Source: Octopus vulgaris
Lineage: Eukaryota
Direction: 5' to 3'
Assembly (NCBI GenBank): GCA_951406725.2
Contig: OX597815.1
Location: 14,260,001-14,324,000 of the forward strand
DNA length: 64,000 nt
Part shown: piece after piece, positions 6,696-64,000 of the stretch
Layout of the letters: each line of letters begins with the position of its first letter
How positions within the stretch are numbered: position 1 is the stretch's first letter
Made by a program: the position numbers and the translations under genes
Notes under the pieces: model-generated
The model's database searches: none
The model's input: only the letters and a program-made list of their open reading frames with translations
What the model was told of the DNA's origin: nothing

Positions 6696-6855
6696 CACCA
6701 GAGTAAGCAAATAAATGTGAAACAATGTGGGAAGAATTGTGCTCGAATACTGGACGTAGAATAATATGCTTCATTGACAAAGCTGTAAAGGCATCACAAA
6801 AACTATTACTCAGATTTTCACGTTCCCCGACGAACGGGAACGTGAAACTCTGATG

Positions 6856-7345
6856 TCCTTGCAAAGATGCAAAGGTACTACGGGATTTTATGATTCAGTG
6901 CGACCATGAGGTAGAGAATAGGAAGACGGACATAGTTTTAATTGAGAAAGAAAATAAACTATGCTGGATCATAGACATAGCATGCCCAGCTGACAGCGAT
7001 AAGGAAAAAAGAAAAGTCGAGAGATATGAGAAGTTAGCTTGGGAAGATAAGCAGTCGTGGTCGATGAAAAAGGTAGCAGTAGTACCAGTAATTGTCGGAG
7101 CACTGGGAACAGTGAGATCACCTATATGTCTCTCATCAAGTAAGCTACCACTACGCTTTTCCTGTGCTATGAGATTACACATATTAGTAAGAACTGTATT
7201 TTCATTGTTATCTCTGATGCTATTGTCCATGACCCGTCTTTTGATAGCTTCAAGCTCTACTTCCGTGAACCAACAATTTTTTTCTTATTGCTCTAGCTTG
7301 ATCACATAGACTCTGTTCCGTGAGTTGAAACACTCCCTTTTCCAT
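6856..7345. mobile_element. Rearranged R4/Dong-like LINE: plus-strand endonuclease fragment (6856-7111) fused to an inverted N-terminal fragment (7112-7345)
   Basis: Plus strand: IQCDHEVENRKTDIVLIEK...IIDIACP...KVERYEKL...VVPVIVGALG (PD-(D/E)xK endonuclease). Minus strand: MDNSIRDNNENTVLTNM matches the plus-strand sequence near 52558-52670. Confidence 0.8.
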
Positions 7346-7985: not shown

Positions 7986-8200
7986 AGATTTCTTTACTAC
8001 CCACAAGGGGCTAAACACAGAGAGGACAAACAAGGACAGACAAACGGATTAAGTCGATTATATCGACCCCAGTGCGCAACTGGTACTTATTTAATCGACC
8101 CCGAAAGGATGAATGACAAAGTCGATCTCGGCGGAATTTGAACTCAGAACGTAACGGCAGACGAAATACGGCTACGCATTTCGCCCGGCGTGCTAACGTT
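7986..8200 (-). mobile_element. SINE family B with Tx1-like tail, inserted in (GATA)n
   Basis: AACGTTAGCACGCCGGGCGAAAT...GTTCAAATTCC (B box)...CCTTTCGGGGTCGAT...AGCCCCTTGTGGGTAGTAAAAGAAAT. Confidence 0.9.
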
Positions 8201-8335
8201 AGATAGAAAGATAGATAGACAGACAGACAGACAGGCATGCATGCATGCACACACACATACATATATACATACATACATACATACATACATACATACATAC
8301 ATACATACATACATACATACATACGTACATACATA

Positions 8336-8740
8336 GGCGCAGGAGTGGCTGTGTGGTAAGTAGCTTGCTTACCAGCCACATGGTTCCGGGTTCAGTCCCA
8401 CTGCGTGGTACCTTGGACAAGTGTATTCTACTATAGCCTCGGGCCGACCAAAGCCTTGTTAGTGGATTTGGTAGATGGAAACTGAAAGAAGCCAGTCGTA
8501 TATATATGTATATATATATATATGCGTGTGTGTGTTTGTGTGTCTGTGTTTGTCCCCCTAGCATTGTTTGACAACCGATGCTGGTGTGTTTATGTCTCCG
8601 TTACTTAGCGGTTCGGCAAAAGGGACCGATAGAATAAGTACTGAGCTTACAAAAGAATAAGTCCCGGGGTCGAGTTGCTCGATTAAAGGCGGTGCTCCAG
8701 CATGGCCGCAGTCAAATGACTGAAACAAGTAAAAAAAAAA
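8336..8740 (+). mobile_element. Full-length SINE family A (tRNA head, CORE-like box, internal TA/TG repeat, LINE-like tail)
   Basis: A box TGGCTGTGTGG, B-box-like GGTTCAGTCCC, CORE-like ACCTTGGACAAGTG, tail CCAGCATGGCCGCAGTCAAATGACTGAAACAAGTAAAA. Confidence 0.9.
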
Positions 8741-9328: not shown

Positions 9329-9536
9329 GGTGATGAGCTGACAAAATCGTAACCACGCCGGACAAAATGGTTAGTGTCCACCTTTATGTTCTGAGTTCAA
9401 ATTCCGCCAGGGCCGACTTTACCTTTCATCCTTTTGGGGTCGATATATTAGGTACCAGTAAAACACTGAAGTCGATGTAATTGACTAGTCCCTTCCCCAC
9501 AAATTTCAGGCCTTGTGCCTTCAGTAGAAAGGATTA

Positions 9537-9621
<85 letters not shown>
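9329..9621 (+). mobile_element. SINE family B with (ATT)n tail
   Basis: Family B body ending AATTTCAGGCCTTGTGCCTTCAGTAGAAAGG(ATT)n; also flanked upstream by (ATT)n. Confidence 0.85.
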
Positions 9622-25735: not shown

Positions 25736-26385
25736 GCGTGCAACTGTCATTTAACGAATATTACTTCGAAATCCCACATCACGATACGCAAACCCGTGTC
25801 CGCAACAAACATAAAAGAGAGTGAAATTGATATTGTCAATGCCTGGTTGGGCTCGTCTCCAGCCGGAACACACACACACACACCTATTATATTTAATATG
25901 CCAACACTGCCCCCCCACCCCACTCTTCACTAAACTATCATCAAGACAATTTGAAAACAACTAAAGCAAATTTCGAAGGCCTTTCATCTCCTTAAAATAT
26001 ATGTGAAACAATTCCATTTAATATTCTCTTGATACAGTTCAGCTGCAGCTATCACAAAAACAATCATCTCTGTTTAGCACTGACCTTAATGACCTCGTTA
26101 CTGTCCATCCTTTTACTAATGGTACAGCTTCTCACCTTTCCTCGATAACCATATCTACCATTATGGCAACATTATCCTCATTATCATCATCATTCTCCCT
26201 CTCTTCCTAGTCATCATCATCATCGTCTTCTACTTTTGCTATAATTCCTACTGCTGCTACTTCTACTAACTCTATCAACAAGAGGAAACCATTTCCCATC
26301 ATTTTCACCATTTGAAATCAACATGAAAGTCTTATTAAACTCATCTAGCGTGGAAAGCATGACGTCATCCCCTAATGTACCTATT

Positions 26386-26981
26386 TCTTTAGTACCCACA
26401 AGGGGCTAAACACAGAGAGGACAAACAAGGACAGACAGACGGATTAAGTCGATTACATCGACCCCAGTGCGTAACTGGTACTTAATTTATCAACCCCGAA
26501 AGGATGTAAGGCAAAGTTGACCTCGGCGGAATTTGAACTCAGAACGTAGCGGCAGACGAAATATCTATTTCTTTATAACCCACAAGGGGCTAAACATAGA
26601 GGGGACAAACAAGGACAGACAAACGGATTAAGTCGATTACATCGACCCCAGTGCGTAACTGGTACTTACTTTATCGACTCCGAAAGGATGAAAGGCAATG
26701 TCGACCTCGGCGGAATTTGAACTCAGAACGTAGCGGCAGACGAAATACCTATTTCTTTATTACCCACAAGGGGCTAAACATAGAAGGGACAAACAAGGAC
26801 AGACATAGGTATTAAGTCGATTACATCGACCTCAGTGCGTAACTGGTACTTAATTTATCGACTCCGAAAGGATGAAAGGCAATGTGGACCTCGTCGGAAT
26901 TTGAACTCAGAACGTAGCGGCAGACGAAATACCGCAAAGCATTTCGCCTGGCGTGCTAACGTTTCTGCCAGCTCGCCGCCC
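26386..26981 (-). mobile_element. Trimeric SINE B array (one head plus three 184-bp body-tail units) flanked by one 18-bp TSD
   Basis: Period 184 (26381, 26565, 26749); TSD TCCCCTAATGTACCTATT at 26368-26385 and 26983-27000. Confidence 0.92.
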
Positions 26982-27449
26982 TTCCCCTAATGTACCTATT
27001 ACTAATACAACAATGCTAAAATCAATCAGTTCGGAAATTGCTCCACCCCTATCCGCGTAAAGAAAACAAATTCACAAAATCTGCCGCTACACCCTTCGCA
27101 AGAGACTATGGCTACATTATGACTGTACATTCCACCCATTTACTAAGAACTCAATGCAGCCAATCCATAGTACTTACACTAAAAGCAACCTACTTGCTAT
27201 TTTAATAAGATAAAGCCCAAGCACTACTATAGCTCTAGTTGCTGCGTTGCAGGTCAAGGGTTTCATATATCAACTCGGAAAACAAGACATTCGATGGTAA
27301 CCAAAGTCACAACTACAGGGGCTTTCTCTAATCAAAGAACGCCATTTAGTATTATAATTGGCACCTTGAACGTGAGTGCTGTATACCAGAAGAGCAAACT
27401 CGAAAACGTCAGCTGTGAGTGCGACTGATTCCACATTAAATTTATGTGC

Positions 27450-29387: not shown

Positions 29388-30662
29388 TTAGGTCGTCGAG
29401 TATGAAATTTGTTGTAAGGTATATGGTAAACTTTTGACAACTGCTCATTTTGCGCCATTATTATATTCTGACAATCTTTACCATTTGTTAGAATGCTGAT
29501 ACATCTATCTCTTTATTCTAACTCATTTTGCATTTTATAAAGTATTTATAAATCAATTTTTGCTATTTTCGTTTAGAGATGGATAAGTCGGAAATTCGTA
29601 CAGTTTTGAAACATGAGTTCTTTCTTGGATATACAGCATCACAGACAGCTAGGAATACTAATGGAGTATTTCATTCTAATGTTATTACACAGCAGATAGT
29701 ATCAAATTGGTTTGCAATATTTCGTTCTGGTAACTTTGGCCTCACAAATGAGGAACGCGGTCGACCAGAATCAAAGTTGGATAATGACGAACTGAAAACC
29801 ACCGTCGAGTCAGATCCATCTCAAAGTGCCTGTAAATTATCGTTGTTGTTTGGTGTTAGCAAGCAAGCAATATTGACTCACCTAGTTCAAACCGGTAAAG
29901 TGAAAATGTTGAGTTCCACGTGAACTCAATGAAAATCAGAAACAGCAACGTTTGGAAGACTGCATTATGCTACTTTCTCGTCACAAAAATTAATCATTTT
30001 TGTATCGAATTGCAACATGGGATGAGAAATGGATCCAACACAACAACCGTAAACGTTCAGCACAATGATTGGACAAAGCTGAAACACAGTCTGAAAAGCA
30101 AAATTCATCAAAAGAAGCTGATGGTGTGCCTTTGGTGGTGTGGCGCAGGTGTGATCCAGTATGATTTTATTAAACCTGACTCATCAATCACGGCCGAGGT
30201 ATATTGCAGTCAACTGGACCAAATGATGCAGAAACTTACAACAAAACAGCCTAGATTAATCAACAGATCCACTCCTATTTTATTGCAAGATAACTCAGAC
30301 CATACATCGCAAAGATGACATTGGCAAAACATAACGGAGTTGGGGTTGGAAGTTCTCCATCATCCACCATACACACCGGATCTTGCTCCCACTGACTAAC
30401 CACGTCTTCCAGAATTTGGATAATTTTTTGATAGGAAAGAAATTTAATTCCAACAATGCTGTAGAACAGCCTTTCCAAGTTTTTATTGAGTCTAGGATTG
30501 CTAGATTTTTACAGTTCCGATCTGGACAAGCTACCGCTGAAATGGCAAAAGTGTATTGACAATGTGGGTGCATATATTTGATGAATAAAACTATTCCTTG
30601 TATTTATAAAACATTAGCAAGTATTTTTTTCTTTCTAAAAATTTCATACTTGACGACTGGAA
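29388..30662 (+). mobile_element. Near full-length mariner (DD34D) transposon with inactivated transposase (29579-~30580)
   Basis: TIRs GTCGTCGAGTATGAAATTT / AAATTTCATACTTGACGAC; HTH N-terminus, TWDEKW, LLQDN and HPPYTPDLAPTD motifs split by frameshifts and stops. Confidence 0.92.
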
Positions 30663-31349
30663 AGATATACAGTTTAATCTAGAAAAAAAGTTTTATGTTA
30701 GTTTCTAGATTGTATCGAAATTAAGATCTGCGTTGAATGAATGTTTTGCGTGAAATAGAACTGTTTGTAATAGAACTCCATTTTTTGTATCACAAACATG
30801 ATGACTTAATACGTTATTTTGATAACCTTGCGATGTTATTTCTATGAATGTTATATAGTATAGAACATTTGAGAGAATAGTTAAGTTGATTTTATTAATA
30901 CTAGCACCTGAGCACATCATCATCAAAAATAAAAAAAACCGGAGTAATAAAAGACAAAGATAGCACTAGTGTGTTATTTGAACGAACAATTTAATGAAAT
31001 GTAAATAAATACTAAGAGTACTACTGACACAAATCACTATTTTAAAATTTAAAAATATGAGAAATAATATTTAATTATTGATGAAGTTTAAATTAGATAT
31101 AATTGAAAATCTATATTCACTTACTTCCTCTTGTTTTTACGCTCGTTATCTGCTGTATCTTATTTATTTAACTATGAATACGATTATTTTCAATGTTTTT
31201 ACTATGTTACTACCTAAGTGACAATAATGAGAGACTATATTGTAACTTAGGCAGACTGACACACATATAGAAACAAGATTACAATTTTTTTCAAGTATTT
31301 TCTAGTTTATGATTAAATATACGGACAGCATTATTATAGATTCTTTTAA

Positions 31350-32100
31350 GGCGGCGAGCTGGCAGAATCGTTAGCACGCCGGGCGAAATACGTAGCCGTA
31401 TTTCGTCTGCCATTACGTTCCGAGTACAAATTCCGCCTAGGTTGACTTTGCCTTTCATCCTTTTGTGGTCGATTAAATAAGTACCAGTTACGCACTGGGG
31501 TCGATGTAATCGACTTAATACCTATGTCTGTCCTTGTTTGTCCCCTCTGTGTTTAGCCCCTTGTGGGTAATAAAGAAATAGGTATTTCGTCTTTCATCTG
31601 CCGTTACGTTCTGAGTTCAAATTCCGCCTAGGTCGACTTTGCCTTCCATTCTTTCGGGGTCGATTAAATAAGTACCAGTTACGCACTGCAGTCAATGTAA
31701 TCGACTTAATCCCTTCGTCTGTCATTGTTTGTGCCCTCTAGGTTTAGCCCCTTGTGGGCAATAAAGAAATGTATAATTGTTTATTTTAGAGAAAAAAAAG
31801 CCGATGTCGACTTTGCCTTTCATCCTTTCGGGGTCGATTGAATAAGTACCATTTACGCACTGGTGTCGGCGTAATCGACTTTATCCGTCTGTCTGTCCTT
31901 GTTTGCCCTCTGTGTTTAGCCCCTTGTGGGTAGTATAGAAATAGGTATTTCGCCTATCTTTACGTTTTGAATTCAAATTCCGCCGTCGCCGACTTTGCCT
32001 TTCATCATTTCGGGATCGATAAATTAAATTGGGGTCTATGTGGTCGACTTACTCCTTCCCCGAAAATTTCGGGCCTTGTGCCTATAGTAGAAAGGATTAT
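31350..32100 (+). mobile_element. SINE B array: head, three Tx1-tailed units, final (ATT)-tailed unit
   Basis: Junctions GAAATA|GGTATTTCG at 31580/31581 and 31943/31944; imperfect outer TSD ATTATTATA.ATTC. Confidence 0.88.
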
Positions 32101-33531
32101 TATAAATTCATTAAGTAAGTACTCAAGCATTTCCACGATCATTCTCTATCCTAGTACACAAACTGCCAGGAGAAAATGCTAAAAGAGGTTAAAGTCCTGT
32201 GCACTTCACGAACAAGAAAGTAAATATGTGTACGCGCGTCTATTTGGGTGTGTATATGCATGCATGCAGACATATGTTTGTATTTAAAAATCTGTTTATA
32301 TATTAGTATCCACTGTCATCTAAATGACTCGAGACGGAATTTCACGTGAAGAATAATGTTACATAAATGACTTTGCTCGTCATTTTGTCTGCTAGCTAAG
32401 GTGAAATATGGTTGTGTGGTGTACGAGTTGGAAATGACTAACGACAAACACTTTCTTCGTAGATCAAGTCCACATCGGATTTCTCAAATTCCACTTACAA
32501 AAGAAAATGTTCTTCTCTTGTGAATTTGTAGTGAAATTAACTTCAGCGGATTAATCTACTCTAAGCATGTAGATCGTAGAGTGTGGGATGACGTCAGAGG
32601 AAGGGGCAGGAGTGACGTGCGCGCAGGCAGGGCAGCATTGGACCTTTTCTATCGAGGTAACCGAAGGAGTTGGACCTGTGAGCGCTTTGTTAAGGTAGGG
32701 GAATAGCAGCTGCTATTTCTAGTGTCCGAGTCGGGCTGCGTGGGAGGGTGCATTACCACTGGAGACGTCTCCATCGAAGAAGAGGAGGTAGGTGTCCTTA
32801 TTTCAAATCTCCCGCAGACACCACATAACAGATGCGAAAGATTATATATTTTTGGCCATCAGGGTGAGCTTCGATCTTTAGGTTTCCTTCATTTGGTTGC
32901 AGCCCTCTTGCATCTGGAGCTCTGAATAGTTCATGTATTTATATATTTTATAATATGTTTACTTGTTAGTTCATATCACGTTTTTATCCTTTTTACTTCT
33001 ACACCTGAGTGCATGTTAACACCTGCACAAAATTGTCCTCTTCATCTGATGTGATACCTCTGTGGCAAATAAAGGAAATCATTATTATTTTATTCTTACT
33101 ATTTTGCAGATCAATACAGTGTCGGGCACAATGCATTGAGGTCCTTGATCTGGCACTTTAAGCTCAGAGTTCAAATCCTGACGCAATCAGCATTACTTTC
33201 CATCCTTTCATCGTCAATGAAATAAAATACCAGTCAAGTACTTGGGTCGGTTGCGTTGGTAAACGCTCTTCAAAAAATTTGAGGACTTGGACCTATGCTA
33301 GAAATATTATTATAGACATTGGCACATCAACTAACTACTCAGGTTCCAGTTTTACTCCTTTTTGTTGGTCTTCATTATTATTTTTCATAGTTATTAAGTT
33401 CCAATGCATGAGGCTGGCGTGGGATTGGAAATTCTCACACGTAAAAGATAGTTTCAACTGGAAAATAAACCTACATTGCAGTGTCAAATCGTCGAACATG
33501 ATGTTGCTCGATTTAGTATCATAGATACGAG

Positions 33532-36129: not shown

Positions 36130-37066
36130 AACACAAGGCCAGAAAGTTAGAGAAAGTAGCACAGACGATTTTATTGACTCCTGTACTTGACTAGCATTTA
36201 TTTTATCGATACTGAAACGATGACAGGCATTGTTAGCCTCGGCAGGATTTGATATATAAATGTAATAATAAAATAAAATTTATCATTGTATATTTCTCAC
36301 GTAATTTGTAATTGTATGTATAGTATTACTAATCCTTTCTACTATAGGCACAAGGCCTGAAATTGTGAGGAGGGGGGGACTATTCGATTACATCAGCCAC
36401 AGTGTTTCACTACTACTTAATTTATCGACCCCGAAAGGATGAAAGTTAAAGTTGACCTTGGAGGAATTTGAACTCAGAACGTGGTGACGGCCGAAATACT
36501 GCTAAGCATTTCGTCCACCGTGCAAACGAGTCTTTTGTTTTCTTCTCTAGGCACAAGGCCCGAAATTTTAGGGGAGGGGGCCAGTTGATTAGATCGACCT
36601 CAGTAGGCAACTAATACTTTATTTATCGACCCCGAAAGAATGAAAGGTAAAGTCGACCTCGTCAGAATTTGAACCCAGAACGTAATTACAGAAGAAATGC
36701 CTATTTTTTTTACTGCCCACAAGGGGCTAAACACAGAGAGGAGAAACAAGGACAGACAAACGGATTAAGTCGATTATATCGACCCCAGTGAGTAACTGGT
36801 ACTTATTTAATCGACCCCGAAAATGAAAGGCAAAGTCGACCTCGGCAGAATTTGAACCCAGAACGTAATTACAGAAGAAATACCTATTTTGTTACTGCCC
36901 ACAAGGGGCTAAACACAGAGAGGAGAAACAAGGACAGACAAACGGATTAAGTCGATTATATCGACCCCAGTGAGTAACTGGTACATATTTAATCGACCCG
37001 AAAGAGGAAAGGCAAAGTCGACCTCGGTGGGATTTGAACTCAGAACGTAAAGACAGACGAAATACC
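36130..37066 (-). mobile_element. Tandem array of SINE B units (Tx1-tailed and ATT-tailed)
   Basis: Repeated ATCGACCCCGAAAG.ATGAAAGG cores; tails near 36330, 36540, 36705 and 36890. Confidence 0.88.
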
Positions 37067-38038
37067 GATTTCTTTATTACCCACGAGGGGCTAACATAGA
37101 AAGTACGTGCACAATATCGGGGAACTAAAATTATAAAAAGGAGGCATAAAGAAAGAAGCAAAATTAAAAGAATCATGAAAAAGATGATACAATGAGGCGG
37201 AATGCCCACTCGACCCCCGAAATCGAGTGGTTACATTGAAACCGTTTTACCGTTCAATCATACTTATCTAAAATTCAGCAGTTCAATAACGTAGTCATTT
37301 TGTAGTTCGATATTACATGTCTGTTTTGGCGATTGCTCTCCTTCCCGTATCACCTTCCACAACTCAATACCCTTATCATACTTTTTTACTATCTCCATTT
37401 GTGCCTTATTTAATAATTGACATATAATAGGATCACCGTCTACATCGAAGCATTCCACATCGACCACATCCTTCCACTCGCTCATCAGGCTTACAACACC
37501 ATCCTCCGCGTCCGCATACAAAACGCAAGCAAAACAAACAGGGGGAGAGGGCGCCATATCTACATCATGTGTGTTTGCATTTCTTTTCTGTTTTGTTGTT
37601 CGAGGGGAATAGGTAGGTTTGGTGTTTGCTGGGGAGGGTGTGGCGAAAAGGGAGAGGGAGGGCACAGGGTGGGTTGGGGTTCACAAGTACTTACTTTCTT
37701 TCTTTTTCTTTCTTTTCTCTTCCCGGCTATTTCCCATTCCCTATCTTCTAATACTGGAGTTTCTCTTTCTCTTTCTACTTCTTGTATCCTCTCCTGTGGT
37801 GGTGGCTGTCGGTCTTCTACTATTTTGGGTGGTGGAGGGCAGTTCACTCTTATGTGGACGCCTTTCTGGCGACATTTAAAGCAGCGAGGAATCCTGCCCT
37901 CCGCCCACACTTTCAGGATCAAATCCCCAATCTACAGATTCTCGGGAAGCACTTCGAGGACCTCCACCTCAGCTTGGACGGTAATTTCGATGATTTGTCC
38001 CTTCGATGTTGCTCCTTCCATCACTTCCGCTTGAATTA
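37067..38038 (-). mobile_element. 5'-truncated ORF1-only L1/Tx1-like element 2 (HAL1-like)
   Basis: LKVWAEGRIPRCFKCRQKGVHIRVNCP (CCHC knuckle), then a basic/Pro-rich region, a short 3'UTR with no RT, and tail AGCCCCTCGTGGGTAATAAAGAAATC joined to SINE GGTATTTCG. Confidence 0.75.
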
Positions 38039-38342
38039 CGTAACTGGTACTTATTCAATCGACCCCGAAAGATGAAAGGCAAAGTCGATCTCGGCGGAAT
38101 TTGAAACCCAGAACGCAATTACAGAAGAGATACCAATTTCTTTACTACCCACAAGGGGCTAAACACAGAGAGGATAAACAAAGACAGACAAACGGATTAA
38201 GTCGATTATATCGACCCCAGTGCGTAACTGGTACTTAATTTATCGATCCCGAAAGGATGAAAGGCAAAGTCGACCTCGGCAGAATTTGAACTCAGAACGT
38301 AGCGGCAGACGAAATACCGCTAAGCATTTCGTTCGGCGTGCT
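38039..38342 (-). mobile_element. SINE B units between the two ORF1-only elements
   Basis: AGCACGCCGAACGAAATGCTTAGCGGTATTTCG... unit plus a partial second unit ending at CCAGTTACG. Confidence 0.88.
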
Positions 38343-40331
38343 GATTTCTTTATTTGTTATTTGTTTATTCCCCACAAGGGGCTAAACATAGAGGTGACAA
38401 ACAAAGACAGACAAAACAGCACAGTGGGGGTATAAAACATAGAACGAATGAATGATAAATGGATTATAATAATGAAAATTAAATGTCTAACCTGCTCCCC
38501 ACTCGCAGCAGTGTTATTTAAATGTTTTTGGTTAACGATTGAAATTCAGTTCTTTTTTTTCCTCTTTCTTGCATCGTTTTTTTTTTGTTTTTTCTTTGAA
38601 CGTCACTAACAATTTTTTAAATTTTACTTACATTGGTTCTTCCTTTTTATCATGCTAGGAACGTCATCAAATCTTGGAAGTCCACCACTGGTGGTAATTC
38701 GTCAAATTGAACTCTTAATGCCGTTATCTCTATCTTGTTCCAAAATTGTTCACTTAGTTTCTCACCTCTCGCTCTATCAAGATTGCCTTAGTGTTTACTG
38801 AGTATTCATTCGGTGCTAGTCTTACCATAATTGCTGTTTTTTATTTTTGTAATTTTCTTTTCTATTTCCACAATTTTAGCATATTTTATCATGTCCCATA
38901 TATGGTTTGGCTCTTTTTTCTGCAGTCCTTCTTGCTTTCCCATATTGGTTTCTTTCGATGTTGTTGGTTTGGTACATTTTTTTTTTATCTGTTGGTCTTT
39001 GCAATCCCACTTGCTTTTCCATTTTGACCTCTTTCGTTGCTGCTGGCATCTCCCGACGTGTCTCACTCTCACTTGGTTGTTTGTGCAGTTCCACCTGCTC
39101 CTTCGTCCTAACCTCCCTCGACGCTGCTGGCATCTCCCGTCTTACTTCTTTCCTCTTCTGCAGTTTCACCTGCTCCTCCTCGCTGGTTCCCTCGATGTCG
39201 CTGGACTTCCTTCTGTACTCTCTTTTCTTTTCTTTAGTGGACTCTTGGGTGGTGAGTCCGCATTTCCTTCTCACTTCTTTCTCTTTACCACCATAAACTG
39301 TTCCTCGACATTTTCTGAACTCTTTTCACCTACCGTGTTTTGCACATCGGTGATATGTCCCTTCTCGCCCTGCTGCTCCTGTTCCATTACATCCTTGTTG
39401 TATTTCTGGGGACACTTTGCCACCATGTGTCCCCGTACTCAACATTAGTAGCAGGTTGGAGGTCTTCCCTGCACCACCACTCTCAAAATCACATCTTCCG
39501 GCGGTTTCACCTCCTCTACTATGTTTTGAAGGTCTGGCAAACTGACCTGGATCGAAACCGCCAGTTCGTATCTCCACCAGTCCACCTCTCACGTTTTCAT
39601 CACTTTTAATACTTTTACTTTCTCTTTCATGTTGAAAAGGATGGATTCCACCAGCCACTCTTCTTGGATCTCAGGGGGCACTCTGCCGATACTCACTCTG
39701 GCTACACGTTTTCCACAGTAGGTCGGCAGAAGTACCCACTCTGGTGTTCTCAGCGCCACAGTGGAGTGGTTCATTGCTTCTTGATGATTGGCGAATCTCA
39801 CCTCCACTGTGCCGTACTTCTTCCCTCTTGTATAAAAAGTTGTGAGCTCTTCACTTCTTTTAGGCATTCTTCTATTGCCTCCTCTGTGGCTATTTCAATT
39901 TTCTTTGTCTTCAAGGACAAGGTTCTGTATGCCACTGTCCGCTCCATTATATTTGCTGTAAAACATTCCGGTGGTGTTAACTTTAGGCTGGTACCATACT
40001 TTTCCAAAAGTTCGTTGAATTCTTTCAACCTCTTCTGGTCCATTTTAATTTCTCGCACTTGCAACACATCCGCAGTTAAACTCCTTCCAGTGGATGCCGC
40101 ATAGCTGCCGGCTGGAATTGGTTCACTCTCCATTCTTTCTCCTACTTCATCCATAAATGAGGAGGAAAACAACTATAATATACTGACAAAAACAAACAGT
40201 AACAAATAATTCAAAAATAATGCCTCAACAATAGCTTCACACTTACGGAAGACCTTCAACAATCAAACAAATCCAATTGAATATCTTAGTCACAAAAACA
40301 ACGCGACTCGTTGCAGTCGTTGAAGTTGAAA
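38343..40331 (-). mobile_element. About 2-kb apparently full-length ORF1-only L1/Tx1-like element 1 (HAL1-like), ORF disrupted
   Basis: ORF1 from ~40154 to ~38650: RGKKYGTVEVRF, RVARVSIGRVPPEI, VVVQGRPPTCY*C*VRGHMVAKCP (CCHC knuckle), charged repeat; no endonuclease or RT; tail TTTAGCCCCTTGTGGGGAATAAA. Confidence 0.8.
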
Positions 40332-40741
40332 CACGTGTAGGTTCCAAAAAGATTTTATAGATAACTTAAATAAAATTATGTATGTGTAAAATCTCCGTTT
40401 CCCGAATCCTTATTATAGTGTTACAAAAGAACATACGCAGTCCCGAAAAGGTCATTCGGATTTACCCAGCGAGAAAAGTTACCAGAGGCTAACAGCTTGG
40501 GTACCACATAAGAACCGTTGTGATTAGCCGGCATATGAAACCGACTTGAGAGGAAGCATGGCAATCGCCAGGATGATATATCCCTTTAAAATCATCTTGG
40601 TAATTATGTGTGTGTGTGTATGTGTGTGTGTAATTCTATCTATCAAATTCCCTTACAATGCATTAATCTACTTGAAGCTACAGCAGAGGACATTTCTCAG
40701 GGTGCCGTACACTGAGACTAAAGACGAAGTCATCATCATCG

Positions 40742-40815: not shown

Positions 40816-41830
40816 GCGGCGAGCTGGCAGAATCGTTAGCACGCCTGACAGTATGCTTAGCGACATTTCATCCATGAAACTCCGCCGAGGTCGACTTAGC
40901 CTTTCATCTTTTCGGGGTCGATAAATTAATTACCAGTTGCGTACTACGGTCGATCTAATCGACTGGCCCCTTCCCCAAAAATTTCGGGCCTTGTGCCTAG
41001 AGTGGAAAAGAATCATTAGCACGCCAGCAGAAATGCTTAGCGGTATTTCGTCTGCTGCCGAAGTCAACTTTGCCTTTCATCCTTTTGGGGTCAATTAAAT
41101 AAATACTAGTTACGCACTGGGGTCGATATAATCGACTTAATCCGTCATCATCATCATCATCATCATCAGTGTCATCATCATCATCATCATCATTATTATC
41201 ACTATTATTATTGTTATTACTATGAAAGCGGCAGTAAAGAAATAGGTATTTCGTCTGTTGCTACGTTTTGAGTACAAATTCTGCCGCGGTTGGCTTTTCT
41301 TTTCATCATCTGGGGTCGATAAATTAAGTACCAGCTGCACACTGGAGTTGATGTAATCGACTTACCCGCTCCCCACAAATTTCAGGCATTGTGCCTTTAA
41401 GATTTTATTTTTTATTTTACATGGCGTCGTACCGAGTAAAATGCTTAGCAACTGTTCGTCCGTCTGCATGTTCTGAGTTCAAATTTGCCTTTCATCCTTT
41501 CAGGGTCGTATGGTTGAGTACTGGGGTCGACGTATTCGGCTATTCCCGTCCCCCTAAAAATTTCAGGCTTTATGTCTATAGTAGAAAGGATTATTATTAT
41601 TAACAAGGCAGACAGCTGGCAGAACCTTTAACAAGCAGGACAAAATGCTTAGTGGCATTTCGTCCGCCTTTGTGGTCTGAGTTCAAATTCCGCTGAGGTC
41701 GACTTCGCCTTACATCCTCTCGGTTGTCGATAATATTAGTACCAGTTGGACACTGGTGTCGATGTAGTCGATATACCCCTCCATCTCCCCTGAAGCCTTG
41801 TACCAAAATATGAAACCTTTATTATGATTA
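40816..41830 (+). mobile_element. Cluster of about five SINE B copies interspersed with (ATC)n/(ATT)n
   Basis: Repeated heads and GCCTTTCATCCTT cores; junction AAAGAAATA|GGTATTTCGTC near 41244. Confidence 0.85.
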
Positions 41831-43269: not shown

Positions 43270-43740
43270 GCCTACCTTGCTACAGCTGAATATTAACACC
43301 TGATCGTCGTACATTGAATTCGGAGAATATGTGACCAGATTGAAGCTTTTAACAGTTTCTGTTAACAGGTTCTATTCCACGACGAGGATTTCAGTATGGT
43401 GTAATACATTAGGTTAAGTCATTCGGTGAGACGGGGAAATGTGCGTAAATTACCTTTGCAGGTAGAACCATGTATACCCTGAAGGTCTGGTATCTCTAAG
43501 AATAGCCTCTTAAGTAAGAAGGCCCCAAACAAGTCAGTCACCTGAGCTGAATTGCTCGAGCCCATAGCCACATCGAAGTTAACAGCGGTATCCGACCTAG
43601 TCCAAAGCTTACCCTCAAATCCAATTACTGTCTTCCAAGCTAAGAGTATTATATCAATTTTTTCTCTATCTATAAGTGAAAGGTTACGGGCATATATTAG
43701 GGCCTTATTCAATAAAATTGGGGAAATACTCACGTAGTAA
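43270..43740 (-). mobile_element. Penelope-like element, reverse transcriptase fragment
   Basis: SISPILLNKAL...IILLAWKTVI...W...FDVAMGSSNSAQVTDLFGAFLL resembles the PLE RT motif FDV.MGS.DGAE.C.LVG. Confidence 0.7.
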
Positions 43741-43869
43741 TTTGATATGTCGTATTATATAACCATGTATATTTATGGCATTCTTTCCCATATTTCCTTA
43801 CTTTGACTGAGCTGTAAGTCCACTCACGAAGTCTTACGAAAGACGCTTCATATTCAAATTTGCCATTAA

Positions 43870-44186
43870 TATGTAGGGCAAGATACTGCGATAGCCTGGG
43901 CTTCAGAGGTCCACAGCTCTTCAATATCCTCCCGAAGGACCTGAGAGACCTGCATGGGGTAGATGCAGATGTCTTCAAAATAAAGTTGGACCTCTTCCTG
44001 TCAGGTGTCCCAGATGAACCAACTTCACGGCAGGAGGTGCAGATGAGGGCAGCTACATCAAACTCTCTCATGCATCAAATGTCAATTGCTAAAAAGCATT
44101 CGTGAAGTAAAATCATGTAGCAACACCGAATAGCAGTGCCCCAGCATGGCCACAGCTCGTGAGCTGAGACTAGATGAAGATGAAGC
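43870..44186 (+). mobile_element. 3' end of a CR1/L2-group LINE
   Basis: SLGFRGPQLFNILPKDLR...FKIKLDLFLSGVPDEP...RAATSNSL; 3'UTR GTGCCCCAGCATGGCCACAGCTCGTGAGCTG followed by GATGAA repeats. Confidence 0.8.
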
Positions 44187-51139: not shown

Positions 51140-51532
51140 TTCCTTTTTCTTTTACTTGTTTCAGTAATTTGAGTGCGGCCATGCTGGAACACCACCTTTA
51201 GTCGAGCAAATCGACCCCAGGACTTATTCTTTGCAAGCCTAGCACTTATTCTATCGGTCCCTTTTGCCGAACCGCTAGGTTACGGGGACGTAAACACACC
51301 ACCATCGGTTGTCAAGCGATGTTGGAGGGACAAACACAGACACACAAACTCACACACACACATATATATACATATATACGACGGGCTTCTTTCAGTTTCC
51401 GTCTACCAAATCCACTCACAAGGCTTTGGTCGGCCCGAGGCTATAGCAGAAGACACTTGCCCAAGTTGCCACGCAGTGGGACTGAACCCGGAACCATGTG
51501 CTTGGTTAGCAAGCTACTTACCACACAGCCAC
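51140..51532 (-). mobile_element. SINE family A
   Basis: Reverse complement of the 8336-8740 copy. Confidence 0.9.
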
Positions 51533-52079
51533 ATATATATATATATATATATATTTTTCTATAAGTAATTTCAAATAGAACAGGTTGAATTGCTTCTTTT
51601 CAAGGCAGCACTCTAAGTGGCCACTGATAGTAGTACAATCATTTGACCTCTGCTGACCCAAAGGGTGCAAAAATTATTTTGTCTCTATGGCTGACCTCCA
51701 CACCATCTAACGCATCTATTTATAGACCTGTAGTTTATGATCTATTCACCAAACTGCTACCCAACTATTTCCTCCTCCAACAATAATAATATGCTGCAGC
51801 TGCTAGTACTAAATATCACTAATACTACAATAATACTACTACTACTATTATAATAGCACAGGAATCTGAGGCCCACTATCACCCTGACCACTACCCTCAT
51901 CTCTGCTACTGTTGCTGTTACACATAAAAACAATAATATCAGTGATGCCAGTGATTATGATGAGAAGAAGAAGAAGAAGAAGAAGAAGAAGAAGAGAAGA
52001 AGAAGAAGAAGGAGGAGGCGGAGGAGGAGGAGAAGAAGAAGAAGAAGAAGAAGAAGAAGAAGAAGAAGAATGAAAGGAA

Positions 52080-53960
52080 ACGGGTGTTGCCTCCTCCTCA
52101 TGGGCTGATTAATGATACATCTAGTGATGGTGTCAATATAAAAATACCGGTAAATGCGCAACCTGATAATCGCTACGTCATATGAGTGATAATGGAAAAA
52201 ACAAAATATTGTGAATAACGGTGGTAAGGAAACTGAAATCAGTGATGGTGACAGTGTTACACCCGGCAGGCTCAGAGATTCTTGTCCGGCTCCAGCTTAT
52301 CGATATCCAGAACGGGATCACCACATACGGAGAAGAGGGAGCAAGCAAATTAATGCTGTGGTCATGGAGTGTTACTACCTGAGCTGTCCGGCAGATAAAA
52401 ATGGTGCTCAAATTAGGAGTTACCGACAACGTATGTATGATCATTGGAGAGAAAAGGGTGTGTTTCAACTCACGGAACAGAGACTATGTGATTAAGGTAA
52501 CAAGAAAAAAAATGTTGGTTCCCAGAAGTAGAGCTCGAAGCTATCAAAAGACGGGTCATGGACAATAGCAGCAGAGATAACAATGAAAATACAGTTCTAA
52601 CTAATATGAGTAATCTCAGCACAGGAAAGGAGTAGTAGTAGCTTACTTAATGAGAGGCATATAGATGATCTAAAAGAAGGCGATAAAACCAATAGCGACA
52701 TGACAGATGAGCAAAAGGCAATCTATGACAGAATAAAGGTAAGACTACAGGAGAACGATAGCGACATTATTTGCAACGTTAAAAAGATAGATCGATGGAA
52801 ATTGAACCAAGAAACGAAAAATGTCAATGAGATTCTGAAATACATCAGAACAAACAACATCACAGAAACAAATAATTTGATCAAGGCAGCAAGTATTGTT
52901 GTAGCAGAAAACATGGGTGTTGATGTCAAGAAAAAGAAACATAATGGGAGTGACAAAAGAAAAGATCCATGGTGGAAAAGAAGAATCCAGGCAGGATTAG
53001 ACATGCTCTCAAAAGAAAGTGAACATGCGATTCTGCAGTACATCTCCAGCGTTCGAAGCTGTGCAAAGGCAATGATAATTATAATAATCGTGGAAAATCG
53101 GAAGTGCAGAAATGAAGTATATCATCAATGACAAAATATTTTTGTAAAATGAGGAATATTTTAAGATCAAAATTTGAATGTAGGAAATATAATACGTGCA
53201 ATTATCTTGAAGGCAATATCGCTAATAAGCTATGAGACACGTATAAACGAAGAGAAAAATATGAGTTAAAGTTATTGAAAGGAGGGCATACAGCAGCTCA
53301 CTAAGCGTCAGGGCGTGCAATTACGTTTATATAGGATTGTTTATACTGAAAAAGAACAATGTAGCAAAATTAGAGAGAATATGTCAAGGATTTTATGTAG
53401 TAGAAAAAGAAAAACTTCCCGACTTAATGAAGAGATAGGGAATAGTTATTTACAGATTTTATAGAATTCCGTAAAAAAAATAGAGGAAAATGTGGAAACG
53501 GTCAACCTTTGAATGAAACTGCATTAATTTTTGTGTGTGTGTGTAATTAACGTGATATGGTAACTGGATGTCAGAATCGAGAAAAATAGAAAGAGAAAAG
53601 GGAGTCTCCAATATGATATTCCGTCACACTGGAGTAAAGACACTGACAAAATTATATTCTTGCTGTTATTGAAGCGTTAGGAATGACAAGGATACATATG
53701 TGAGTAAACCTTCTGGAGTTAGGTCTCAATCTGAGTTTGAATGCAGTACAGAAAATTTACTTACTTAGTTCAACAAGAATTGTCTGGGAAGTTCTCGACT
53801 CAAAGTAATAGCAATTTATAGAACGATGGACAAAATGCGTCTCATCCTAGACAAGAGGTTGTGGTATGATAGGAGGCACGACTAAAAGGGTTGCAACATT
53901 AATGTCATGCAACATAAAAATGTGTAATAAATCCCTCAGAATGTGAAAAACTGCATAATA
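52080..53960 (+). mobile_element. Internally deleted R4/Dong-like LINE (N-terminus plus decayed C-terminus, RT missing)
   Basis: INAVVMECYY...YRQRMYDHW...EQRLCD; NITETNNLIKAAS...PWWKRRIQ; later AVIEALG-like C-terminal motif. Confidence 0.75.
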
Positions 53961-63070: not shown

Positions 63071-63286
63071 TTTACCCTTTTACTCTTTTACATGATTTAG
63101 TAGTCATTTGACTGCAGCCATGCTGGAGCACCGCCTTTGGTCGAGCAAATCGACCCCGCGACATATTCTTTGTAAGCCCATTACTTATTCTATCGGTCTC
63201 TTTTGCCGAACTGCTAAGTTACGGGGACGTAAACACACCAGCATCGGTTGTCAAGCAATGCTAGAGGGACAAACACAGACACACAA

Positions 63287-63351
<65 letters not shown>

Positions 63352-63510
63352 TACGACAGGCTTCTTTCAGTTTCCGTCTACCAAATCCACTCACAAGGCA
63401 TTGGTCGGCCCGGGGCTATAGCAGAAGACACTTGCCCAAGATGCCACGCAGTGGGACTGAACCCGAAACCATGTGGTTGGTTAGCAAGCTACTTACCACA
63501 CAACTACTCC
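63071..63510 (-). mobile_element. SINE family A
   Basis: Reverse complement of the 8336-8740 copy. Confidence 0.9.
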
Positions 63511-64000
63511 AGTTCATCAAATATATAACCAGCATGTTGTGTTTGTTTTCTGGCAATCATTTTATAGGACTAGATTTTGTGAGTCTCGAGTATACTGAAG
63601 GATGTGGATTAAAATGCTTTTCACCTCCAGCATCCAGTTAGATGTTGCTTCTTGTCTGTTTATTCTCTCTTTGGATGCTACTGCACGGAAACTAGTTAGT
63701 TGAGTCAACTAAAACTTAGAAATCTTGTTAACCGCCAGGTGCTTTCCAACAGGTTTAGTTTACAATGTGCTGGCGAGTTCTTTGCCAGTAATAATGAACA
63801 GTGCTACCGGTACCATTACGTAAAATGTATTTATCTCTTTACTTCTGATTCATTGTAGAATTTTAGTACACTAATTGTTTTTGTTCCATAATCTCCATCC
63901 AGAATACATGAAAGTTCATTGGTGTTGGTGTTGGTGTGCCTCCCAGCATTTTAAATGTCGTTAATGTCCCTGTAGAATCATTTGCTATTTGACTGAATTC

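Follow-up and report, generated by a model that had tools for sequence, protein, structure and literature searches.

Two apparent ORF1-only retroelement copies carry a SINE tail and lie within a SINE array of Octopus vulgaris

In a 64,000-nucleotide stretch of the Octopus vulgaris genome (contig OX597815.1 of assembly GCA_951406725.2, positions 14,260,001 to 14,324,000; hereafter the window), two sequences that we call E1 and E2 encode the first open reading frame (ORF1) of a long interspersed element (LINE), lie in an array of short interspersed elements (SINEs) and end in the tail of one of these, SINE B. Our analysis indicates that E1 and E2 are probably decayed copies of two ORF1-only retroelements with the SINE B tail, likely copied in trans by a Tx1-like LINE that probably prefers a site in the SINE head.

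Both elements are on the minus strand and their 3′ ends lie at 38343 and 37067, exactly as a preliminary description of the window had placed them. Each ends in AAAGAAATC, preceded by AGCCCCT(T/C)GTGGG and followed directly by SINE sequence, and the order along the minus strand, down to 36330, is E1, U1, U2a, E2, U2b, U3, U4 and U5, the U units being SINE sequence. The 5′ end of E1, set at 40331 in that description, is not fixed: summed contig depth in run X1 falls from 1257 over 40344-40416 to 75 over 40417-40460, so the end may lie anywhere from 40331 to about 40416, possibly near 40407. The two elements and their parts are as follows.

38343..40407, minus strand: E1, probable decayed ORF1-only retroelement copy, from profile match and contig depth; 5′ end uncertain
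38650..40154, minus strand: E1 ORF1, ATG to stop, broken by frameshifts and stops
39412..39453, minus strand: E1 CCHC knuckle, with two internal stops
38656..38907, minus strand: E1 conserved C-terminal ORF1 domain, from profile match
38343..38649, minus strand: E1 3′ untranslated region (UTR), without endonuclease or reverse transcriptase match in Pfam
38343..38415, minus strand: E1 tail common with SINE B; predicted 4-bp hairpin with CUUGU loop at 38370-38382
37067..38038, minus strand: E2, 5′-truncated ORF1 of a different subfamily, with short 3′ region and B-type tail
37839..37883, minus strand: E2 knuckle, C-x2-C-x5-H-x4-C, from alignment of relatives P0042 and P0044
37264..37680, minus strand: E2 last open frame, 138 codons, presumed ORF1 C-terminus
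37067..37100, minus strand: E2 tail common with SINE B, joined to position p2 of the SINE head

A profile of 80 database relatives, run against the six frames of the window, matched two loci only, E1 (independent E-value (iE) 2.6e-69) and E2 (iE 3.6e-17). The two proteins are identical at 16 of 51 residues in their shared part, which bears out the earlier view that they are distinct ORF1 proteins, and the sole significant match between the two at the DNA level is 34 nt of the tail (E 9e-7). The CCHC zinc knuckles named in the same description are weak when taken alone: Pfam zf-CCHC scores the E1 knuckle at E 0.025, below the cut-off that relatives pass, and gives no match on the E2 knuckle, across which P0042 and P0044 align. 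Neither reading frame is intact. E1 ORF1 begins with an ATG at 40154 and is interrupted by several frameshifts and stops, two of the stops falling within the knuckle, and E2 starts inside ORF1, being 5′-truncated within the second domain. At its 3′ side E1 ORF1 matches the C-terminal-domain profile over positions 15-99 of 100 (iE 7e-13), to 38656, and relatives P0050 and P0077 align to E1 as far as the same point; as judged from these alignments, E1 ORF1 is complete to the natural end of the family, about 310 nt before the tail tip. The last frame of E2 is presumed to be the ORF1 C-terminus. P0042 aligns into it; it has no Pfam match of note and none to the C-terminal profile, its best Atlas score is 0.80, and its single-sequence structure model has a pLDDT of 35. 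In the 3′ region of E2, at 37205-37229, a perfect 8-bp hairpin (CCACTCGA / TCGAGTGG) lies about 35 nt past the stop.

That neither copy encodes an endonuclease or reverse transcriptase had been claimed from inspection, and Pfam found no such family in any of the 12 read-through frames of E1 and E2. A search of the two 3′ regions for ORF2 remnants, by eye and with Pfam, gave sub-threshold unrelated matches only. Because 5′-truncated LINE copies keep ORF2 and lose ORF1, an ORF1 with a tail needs either an ORF2-less template or a clean later deletion. This arrangement occurs twice in 3.3 kb, in two subfamilies, and it is for these two window copies, not at the level of the family, that ORF1 without ORF2 is established.

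Contigs of run X1 cover 30 of 30 E1 bins, with up to 24 contigs at the ORF1 places listed and 11 over the E1-specific UTR at 38480; the long pieces listed differ from E1 at about 8-13% of sites. Since several divergent contigs run along it, E1 is, by this sequence evidence, a multi-copy repeat family. Depth in X1, which is no copy number, continues unbroken from ORF1 into the UTR. The raw-read runs X21-X23 reached 6, 7 and 2 of the 30 bins, mostly through T-rich matches, and were uninformative. In run X22, which barely covers E1, 12 reads over 38358-38415 step back by 58 nt when they reach the tail, a hint that a tail-like unit is tandemly repeated in that sample.

The wider ORF1 family was examined in a protein search of 1.84 billion representatives. 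With E up to 0.001, 384 of these match; the 150 listed include a few unrelated plant knuckle proteins or gene-model chimeras. Of the 150, 80 form the family profile, the plant proteins, chimeras and many short fragments having been left out of the alignment. Eight of ten relatives looked up come from Octopus bimaculoides, O. sinensis, O. vulgaris or Argonauta hians, and on these matches the family is large in octopods. Searches for longer relatives that might be fused ORF1-ORF2 proteins returned one WD40 gene-model chimera and two plain relatives, with no true fusion; this absence is weak evidence because ORF2 is usually a separate frame. Three of the family's database entries (P0001, P0087 and P0147) are gene models that join it to host WD40, LDL-receptor or RGS exons and are probably annotation chimeras.

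In the structure model of relative P0019, whose mean pLDDT is 76, two compact domains at the N-terminus are followed by a knuckle, then by a disordered linker and a C-terminal domain. Foldseek on this model gave tandem-RRM proteins as the best matches, six of them at E up to 0.001 with low TM scores, and a wide fold search gave RRM and ferredoxin-like folds, the best (Z 8.4, root-mean-square deviation 2.3 over 79 residues) lying near background. Atlas scores were 0.91-0.92 for unnamed and CCHC clusters and 0.89 for one resembling ZCCHC3, and a sequence search of the PDB returned mostly zinc-knuckle proteins. No L1 ORF1p structure was among the fold matches listed, which does not exclude one, and Transposase_22 had no match in the six window frames or in 31 relatives. 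We conclude that the E1/E2 family has, according to these models, a type I ORF1 (two predicted RRM-like domains, a CCHC knuckle and a C-terminal domain) and not a Transposase_22 one. Type I variants in non-mammalian animals are consistent with Tx1 according to the accessible part of PMC5203782.

Besides the 34-nt match, the last 58 nt of E1 are 84-91% identical to SINE B tails, and the claim that both elements share their tail with SINE B is sustained. By motif the window holds 15 B-type tails, those of E1 and E2 included, and with a tail tip at 41245 the total is 16; the B-tail pattern had no matches in metagenome contigs. An alignment of 18 tails (E1, E2, ten B and six of a second, A type) is consistent with a 4-bp stem and a CUUGU loop, paired in 71 of 72 cells, and two of the four stem pairs are changed on both sides, that is swapped, between the A and B types. 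This covariation lends the putative hairpin modest support, since the structure was read off the same sequences and the swap is probably one split. A shared structured 3′ tail, the mark of a stringent SINE-LINE pair, was found between SINE B and both ORF1 elements; the autonomous partner was unseen. The A-type tails, at 36330-36701, 31944-32101, 40821-41011 and 9336-9560, have the CUUGU loop, the swapped stem and an (ATT)n-like end, and two of them, at 36528 and 41009, join a SINE head 3-4 nt before a position that we call p1. A second partner LINE, with a site of its own, may be behind them.

Two positions in the SINE head matter here: p1 (AGCACG, the end of an A-box-like motif) and p2 (GGTAT), 24 nt downstream. 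Among the 16 B tails, nine, including that of E2, join a SINE head at GGTATTTC (p2), one (E1) joins at p1 and six precede other sequence. About 21 of 332 GGTA sites are p2, so that about 6% would be expected there, and nine of 16 gives a P of 1e-7; when each array is allowed one junction, the figure is 4/10 (P 0.002). In the literature a non-LTR element is called target-specific when more than 20% of its flanks lie in one sequence type (PMC4494074, accessible part); in the window 10 of 16 SINE B-class tails adjoin a SINE (4/10 per array), which is above that level for this class, E1 and E2 contributing one copy each.

Four B insertions with a head were tested for flanking duplications. In three of them these measure 14, 12 and 17 nt, against a null of 1, 0 and 0 in 2000; two start at GGT and one 2 nt before GGT. 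The fourth has a weak one of 7 nt (36/2000). As the duplications begin with GGT, the GGT found after B tails comes from the target. Within the window B-type tails have a real, non-random preference for one position in the SINE head. They also stand at unique sites whose duplications begin with GGT, and the pattern is one of a motif preference best met by the SINE head, not of exclusive homing. An autonomous LINE, ORF1-only satellites and a tail-capturing SINE, all homing to the SINE as a putative safe landing site, had been proposed from the first inspection; the shared tail, the missing ORF2 in both copies and the p2 preference stand, and exclusive homing falls to the unique GGT sites. The units of the array and two supporting sites are listed below.

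38135..38342, minus strand: U1, SINE B from p1, with complete B tail
38039..38134, minus strand: U2a, 96-nt SINE piece, from p2 to the E2 5′ junction
36885..37066, minus strand: U2b, SINE B unit, p2 to tail
36702..36884, minus strand: U3, SINE B unit, p2 to tail, probably a local duplicate
36529..36701, minus strand: U4, SINE with A-type tail, from p2
36330..36528, minus strand: U5, final unit of the array, an A-tailed SINE whose start is 4 nt before p1
40414..40424, minus strand: candidate 5′ copy of an 11-nt duplication round the whole array; 3′ copy at 36319-36329, one mismatch
26369..27000, minus strand: supporting site, three B units, two joined at p2, 17-nt flanking duplication (0/2000 null)
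31330..32110, plus strand: supporting site, B units, two of them joined at p2, nested in an A-type SINE that has a duplication of its own (7/2000 null)

At 31 kb it is the A-type SINE that is framed by the outer duplication, and the B units of the array lie inside this SINE, so B went into A. Adjacent units in both the 26 kb and the 31 kb arrays have different subfamily marks, which argues against pure duplication. U3 resembles U4 in its 5′ part (3/62 differences) and U2b in its 3′ part (3/88) and, from this pattern, is probably a local recombinant or duplicate. The 11-nt near-duplication is not significant alone, as 37 of 300 random stretches score as well; its 5′ copy coincides with the fall in X1 depth at 40416-40417, and it would place the whole 4-kb stack inside one old SINE.

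SINEs make up 8% of the window. We take the SINE head to be of tRNA origin from its A- and B-box likeness, and the SINE itself may, as a lead, be one of OK, OR1 and OR2. ARAGORN found no tRNA genes in the window, and Rfam gave two sub-threshold snoRNA matches. OK, OR1 and OR2 are octopus tRNA-derived SINEs (Ohshima and Okada, 1994, as cited in the accessible part of PMC4758252). At 41245 a 13-nt B-tail tip stands at p2 of an A-type SINE that lacks most of its head from the first bases up to p2. By eye, an 8-bp inverted repeat can be made out in the head (GACGAAAT / ATTTCGTC, for example at 38310-38335), with p2 next to its loop; once inserted, the B-tail tip GAAATA re-creates a short palindrome together with TATTTC.

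The two elements meet the SINE differently. As described earlier, both 3′ ends are joined to SINE sequence; the two junctions are at different SINE positions, 24 nt apart. The tail of E2 joins p2 exactly, and its 5′ end joins SINE sequence 96 nt downstream of p2. A 96-nt target duplication round E2 was considered and rejected on the 15 differences in 93 sites between the flanking SINE pieces. E2 either inserted at p2 with loss of the 3′ half of the preceding unit, or brought read-through SINE sequence with it from an earlier site and was joined by homology.

Several observations weigh against copying of ORF1-only elements into the SINE head. No partner LINE was seen. Type I ORF1 is also carried by CR1, L2 and other clades, CR1 and L2 carrying every type (PMC5203782, accessible part); as it is not exclusive to Tx1 and the partner is unseen, the Tx1 clade is only inferred. 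The two compensatory pairs in the hairpin probably reflect a single A/B split and not many events. Among the X1 contigs listed none securely bridges E1 ORF1 and UTR: two near-identical pieces at 38450-38648 end at the stop codon, and joints that span the boundary are short-sided or interrupted by unknown letters. Six of the 16 B tails do not directly precede a SINE, and U3, as a local duplicate, inflates the raw 9/16, duplication adding to such counts. The SINE pieces flanking E2 differ as much as unrelated copies do. The junction of E1, at p1, does not begin with GGT; upstream of this element, a search allowing up to 8 edits turned up no left half of a SINE head.

In a rival account E1 and E2 are individual copies of ordinary LINEs with two ORFs, from which ORF2 was deleted after insertion, while the SINE borrows their tail and target as before. 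Both copies are old and broken, joints in other E1 copies in X1 skip 41 to 1074 nt, and no contig proves the ORF1-UTR junction in another copy; yet two independent multi-kb deletions would be needed, each sparing the ORF1 end and the tail and leaving no recognisable ORF2 remnant, and X1 depth (no copy number, as said) is gapless across the boundary. We regard this account as unlikely. It is quite unlikely that ORF1-only elements exist without real SINE targeting, the enzyme merely liking GGTA and the arrays growing through slippage or unequal crossover that pairs the GGTA of p2 with the one behind a tail. Duplications at unique sites start with GGT and so have 4-5 nt of microhomology with p2, U3 is likely a recombinant, and 274 of the 332 GGTA sites lie outside SINEs, but the excess at p2 survives the count of one junction per array, slippage within one SINE B could not make the B tails inside A-type SINEs (the 31 kb array and 41245), and E2, which is not a SINE, joins p2 exactly.

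The direction of insertion might also be the reverse, with the tail end as the target and 5′-truncated SINEs inserting behind existing tails, E1 and E2 having come first. The missing left SINE half upstream of E1 would fit this, as would the likeness of its tail tip AGAAATC to the AGAA(T/A)C just before p1 in the head. Against it, the outer duplication of the 31 kb array is that of its final A-type SINE, so that the upstream B units came later, and solo B tails with free ends stay unoccupied at six sites. This reading we consider very improbable.

If trans-copying of ORF1-only elements into the SINE head is followed through, the partner's ORF2 protein would bind the 3′ hairpin, and its enzyme would nick so that the duplication starts at GGTA and prime reverse transcription there. 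The SINE head, which would offer both GGTATTTC and homology for the joining of SINE cDNA, could be struck far more often than a short motif predicts; with tail and GGTATTTC left intact by each insertion, head-to-tail stacks would grow, and unequal crossover would add further units. The retained ORF1 protein (ORF1p) might coat its own RNA and help to recruit the partner enzyme, as proposed for HeT-A, HAL1 and Ag-Sponge (PMC5786205, accessible part). E1 may have entered at a second site, at the A box beside the A-type junctions, or have lost 3 nt at such a junction, and ORF2-less master copies would be the source of both elements. We infer the Tx1-like partner, hairpin recognition, nicking at GGTA, the role of ORF1p in cis and the ORF2-less masters.

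The elements had been called HAL1-like. HAL1 is a mammalian non-autonomous LINE derivative that encodes ORF1p only (PMC5753468, accessible part). The analogy is sound in that the two window copies likewise code for ORF1p alone; the kind of ORF1 is not the same, as HAL1 derives from L1 and has a type II ORF1 (Transposase_22), whereas that of E1 and E2 is type I (RRM and CCHC). The 3′ end of L1 and HAL1 is poly(A), in contrast to the putative hairpin and AAAGAAATC, joined to a SINE, with which E1 and E2 end, and the octopus elements have a target preference. HeT-A (Jockey) and Ag-Sponge (CR1) are bipartite non-autonomous LINEs with ORF1 present, thought to multimerise with partner proteins (PMC5786205). 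E1 and E2 resemble them as apparent ORF1-present non-autonomous LINEs, and E1 is multi-copy. HeT-A forms head-to-tail arrays. These elements belong to other clades and hosts, and neither SINE tail sharing nor insertion into a SINE is described for them in the accessible part of PMC5786205.

For targeting, the closest likeness is to the crocodilian SINEU and its likely partner Tx1-Mar, a SINE and a probable Tx1 element that both prefer another transposon, the Mariner DNA transposon, as target; their SINE heads are snRNA-derived and an ORF1-only member goes unmentioned in the accessible part of that source, whereas the octopus target is the SINE family's own tRNA-like head (PMC4494074). The same source reports a Tx1-clade preference for multicopy targets in Xenopus Tx1, which inserts in Tx1D, and in Keno, Kibi and Koshi; these differ in being autonomous, with DNA transposons, U2 genes or microsatellites as targets. 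Dada DNA transposons strike tRNA A boxes (PMC8869645, accessible part).

In O. vulgaris L1-Tx1 elements are abundant and recently active, with 80 families, and SINEs form about 12% of octopus genomes; the accessible main text and supplement of that study mention no HAL1 or nested elements, and its sequence library could bear on novelty (PMC13282606). The accessible parts of PMC9115989, PMC8967140 and PMC4758252 hold nothing on an ORF1-only/SINE-head arrangement, and no ORF1-only or SINE-targeting elements in cephalopods were found in the full-text literature searched, which leaves most subscription papers outside and does not cover Repbase or Dfam. LINEs that encode ORF1 alone are known, and so is Tx1 targeting of other transposons; the two combined on a SINE head appear new, as no such case turned up in that literature.

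Elsewhere in the window, 29552-30318 holds a Mariner transposase remnant (HTH_48 E 1.6e-10, Transposase_1 E 9e-18). Reading frames at 6854-7309, 52193-53131 and 43419-44074 resemble, by eye, remnants of RTE-type and Penelope-type elements, with no supporting Pfam match at E 0.01, and a second abundant short repeat with near-identical translated frames occurs at 8199-8600, 51173-51568 and 63096-63641.

We tentatively put forward, as possible though short of probable, that octopods harbour a self-targeting retroposon community in which Tx1-like LINEs, tail-capturing SINE subfamilies and several ORF1-only satellites of independent origin home to fixed sites in the tRNA-like head of the most common SINE in the genome. 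The two tail types would mark two partner enzymes and two sites, the SINE would build its own landing pads, and read-through SINE sequence may steer the next insertion.

Nested arrays of this kind would be broken up by automated annotation into numerous spurious families, and if the partner has an endonuclease that favours GGTA-type sites, this could be a novel sequence-selective enzyme. If the proposal is true, the elements would add another independent origin of ORF1-only LINEs, so that retention of ORF1p in cis could be compared across origins, and a non-autonomous passenger would now be targeted by the very element that drives it. Such feedback might contribute to the abundance of SINEs in octopus genomes and to their pile-up in arrays.

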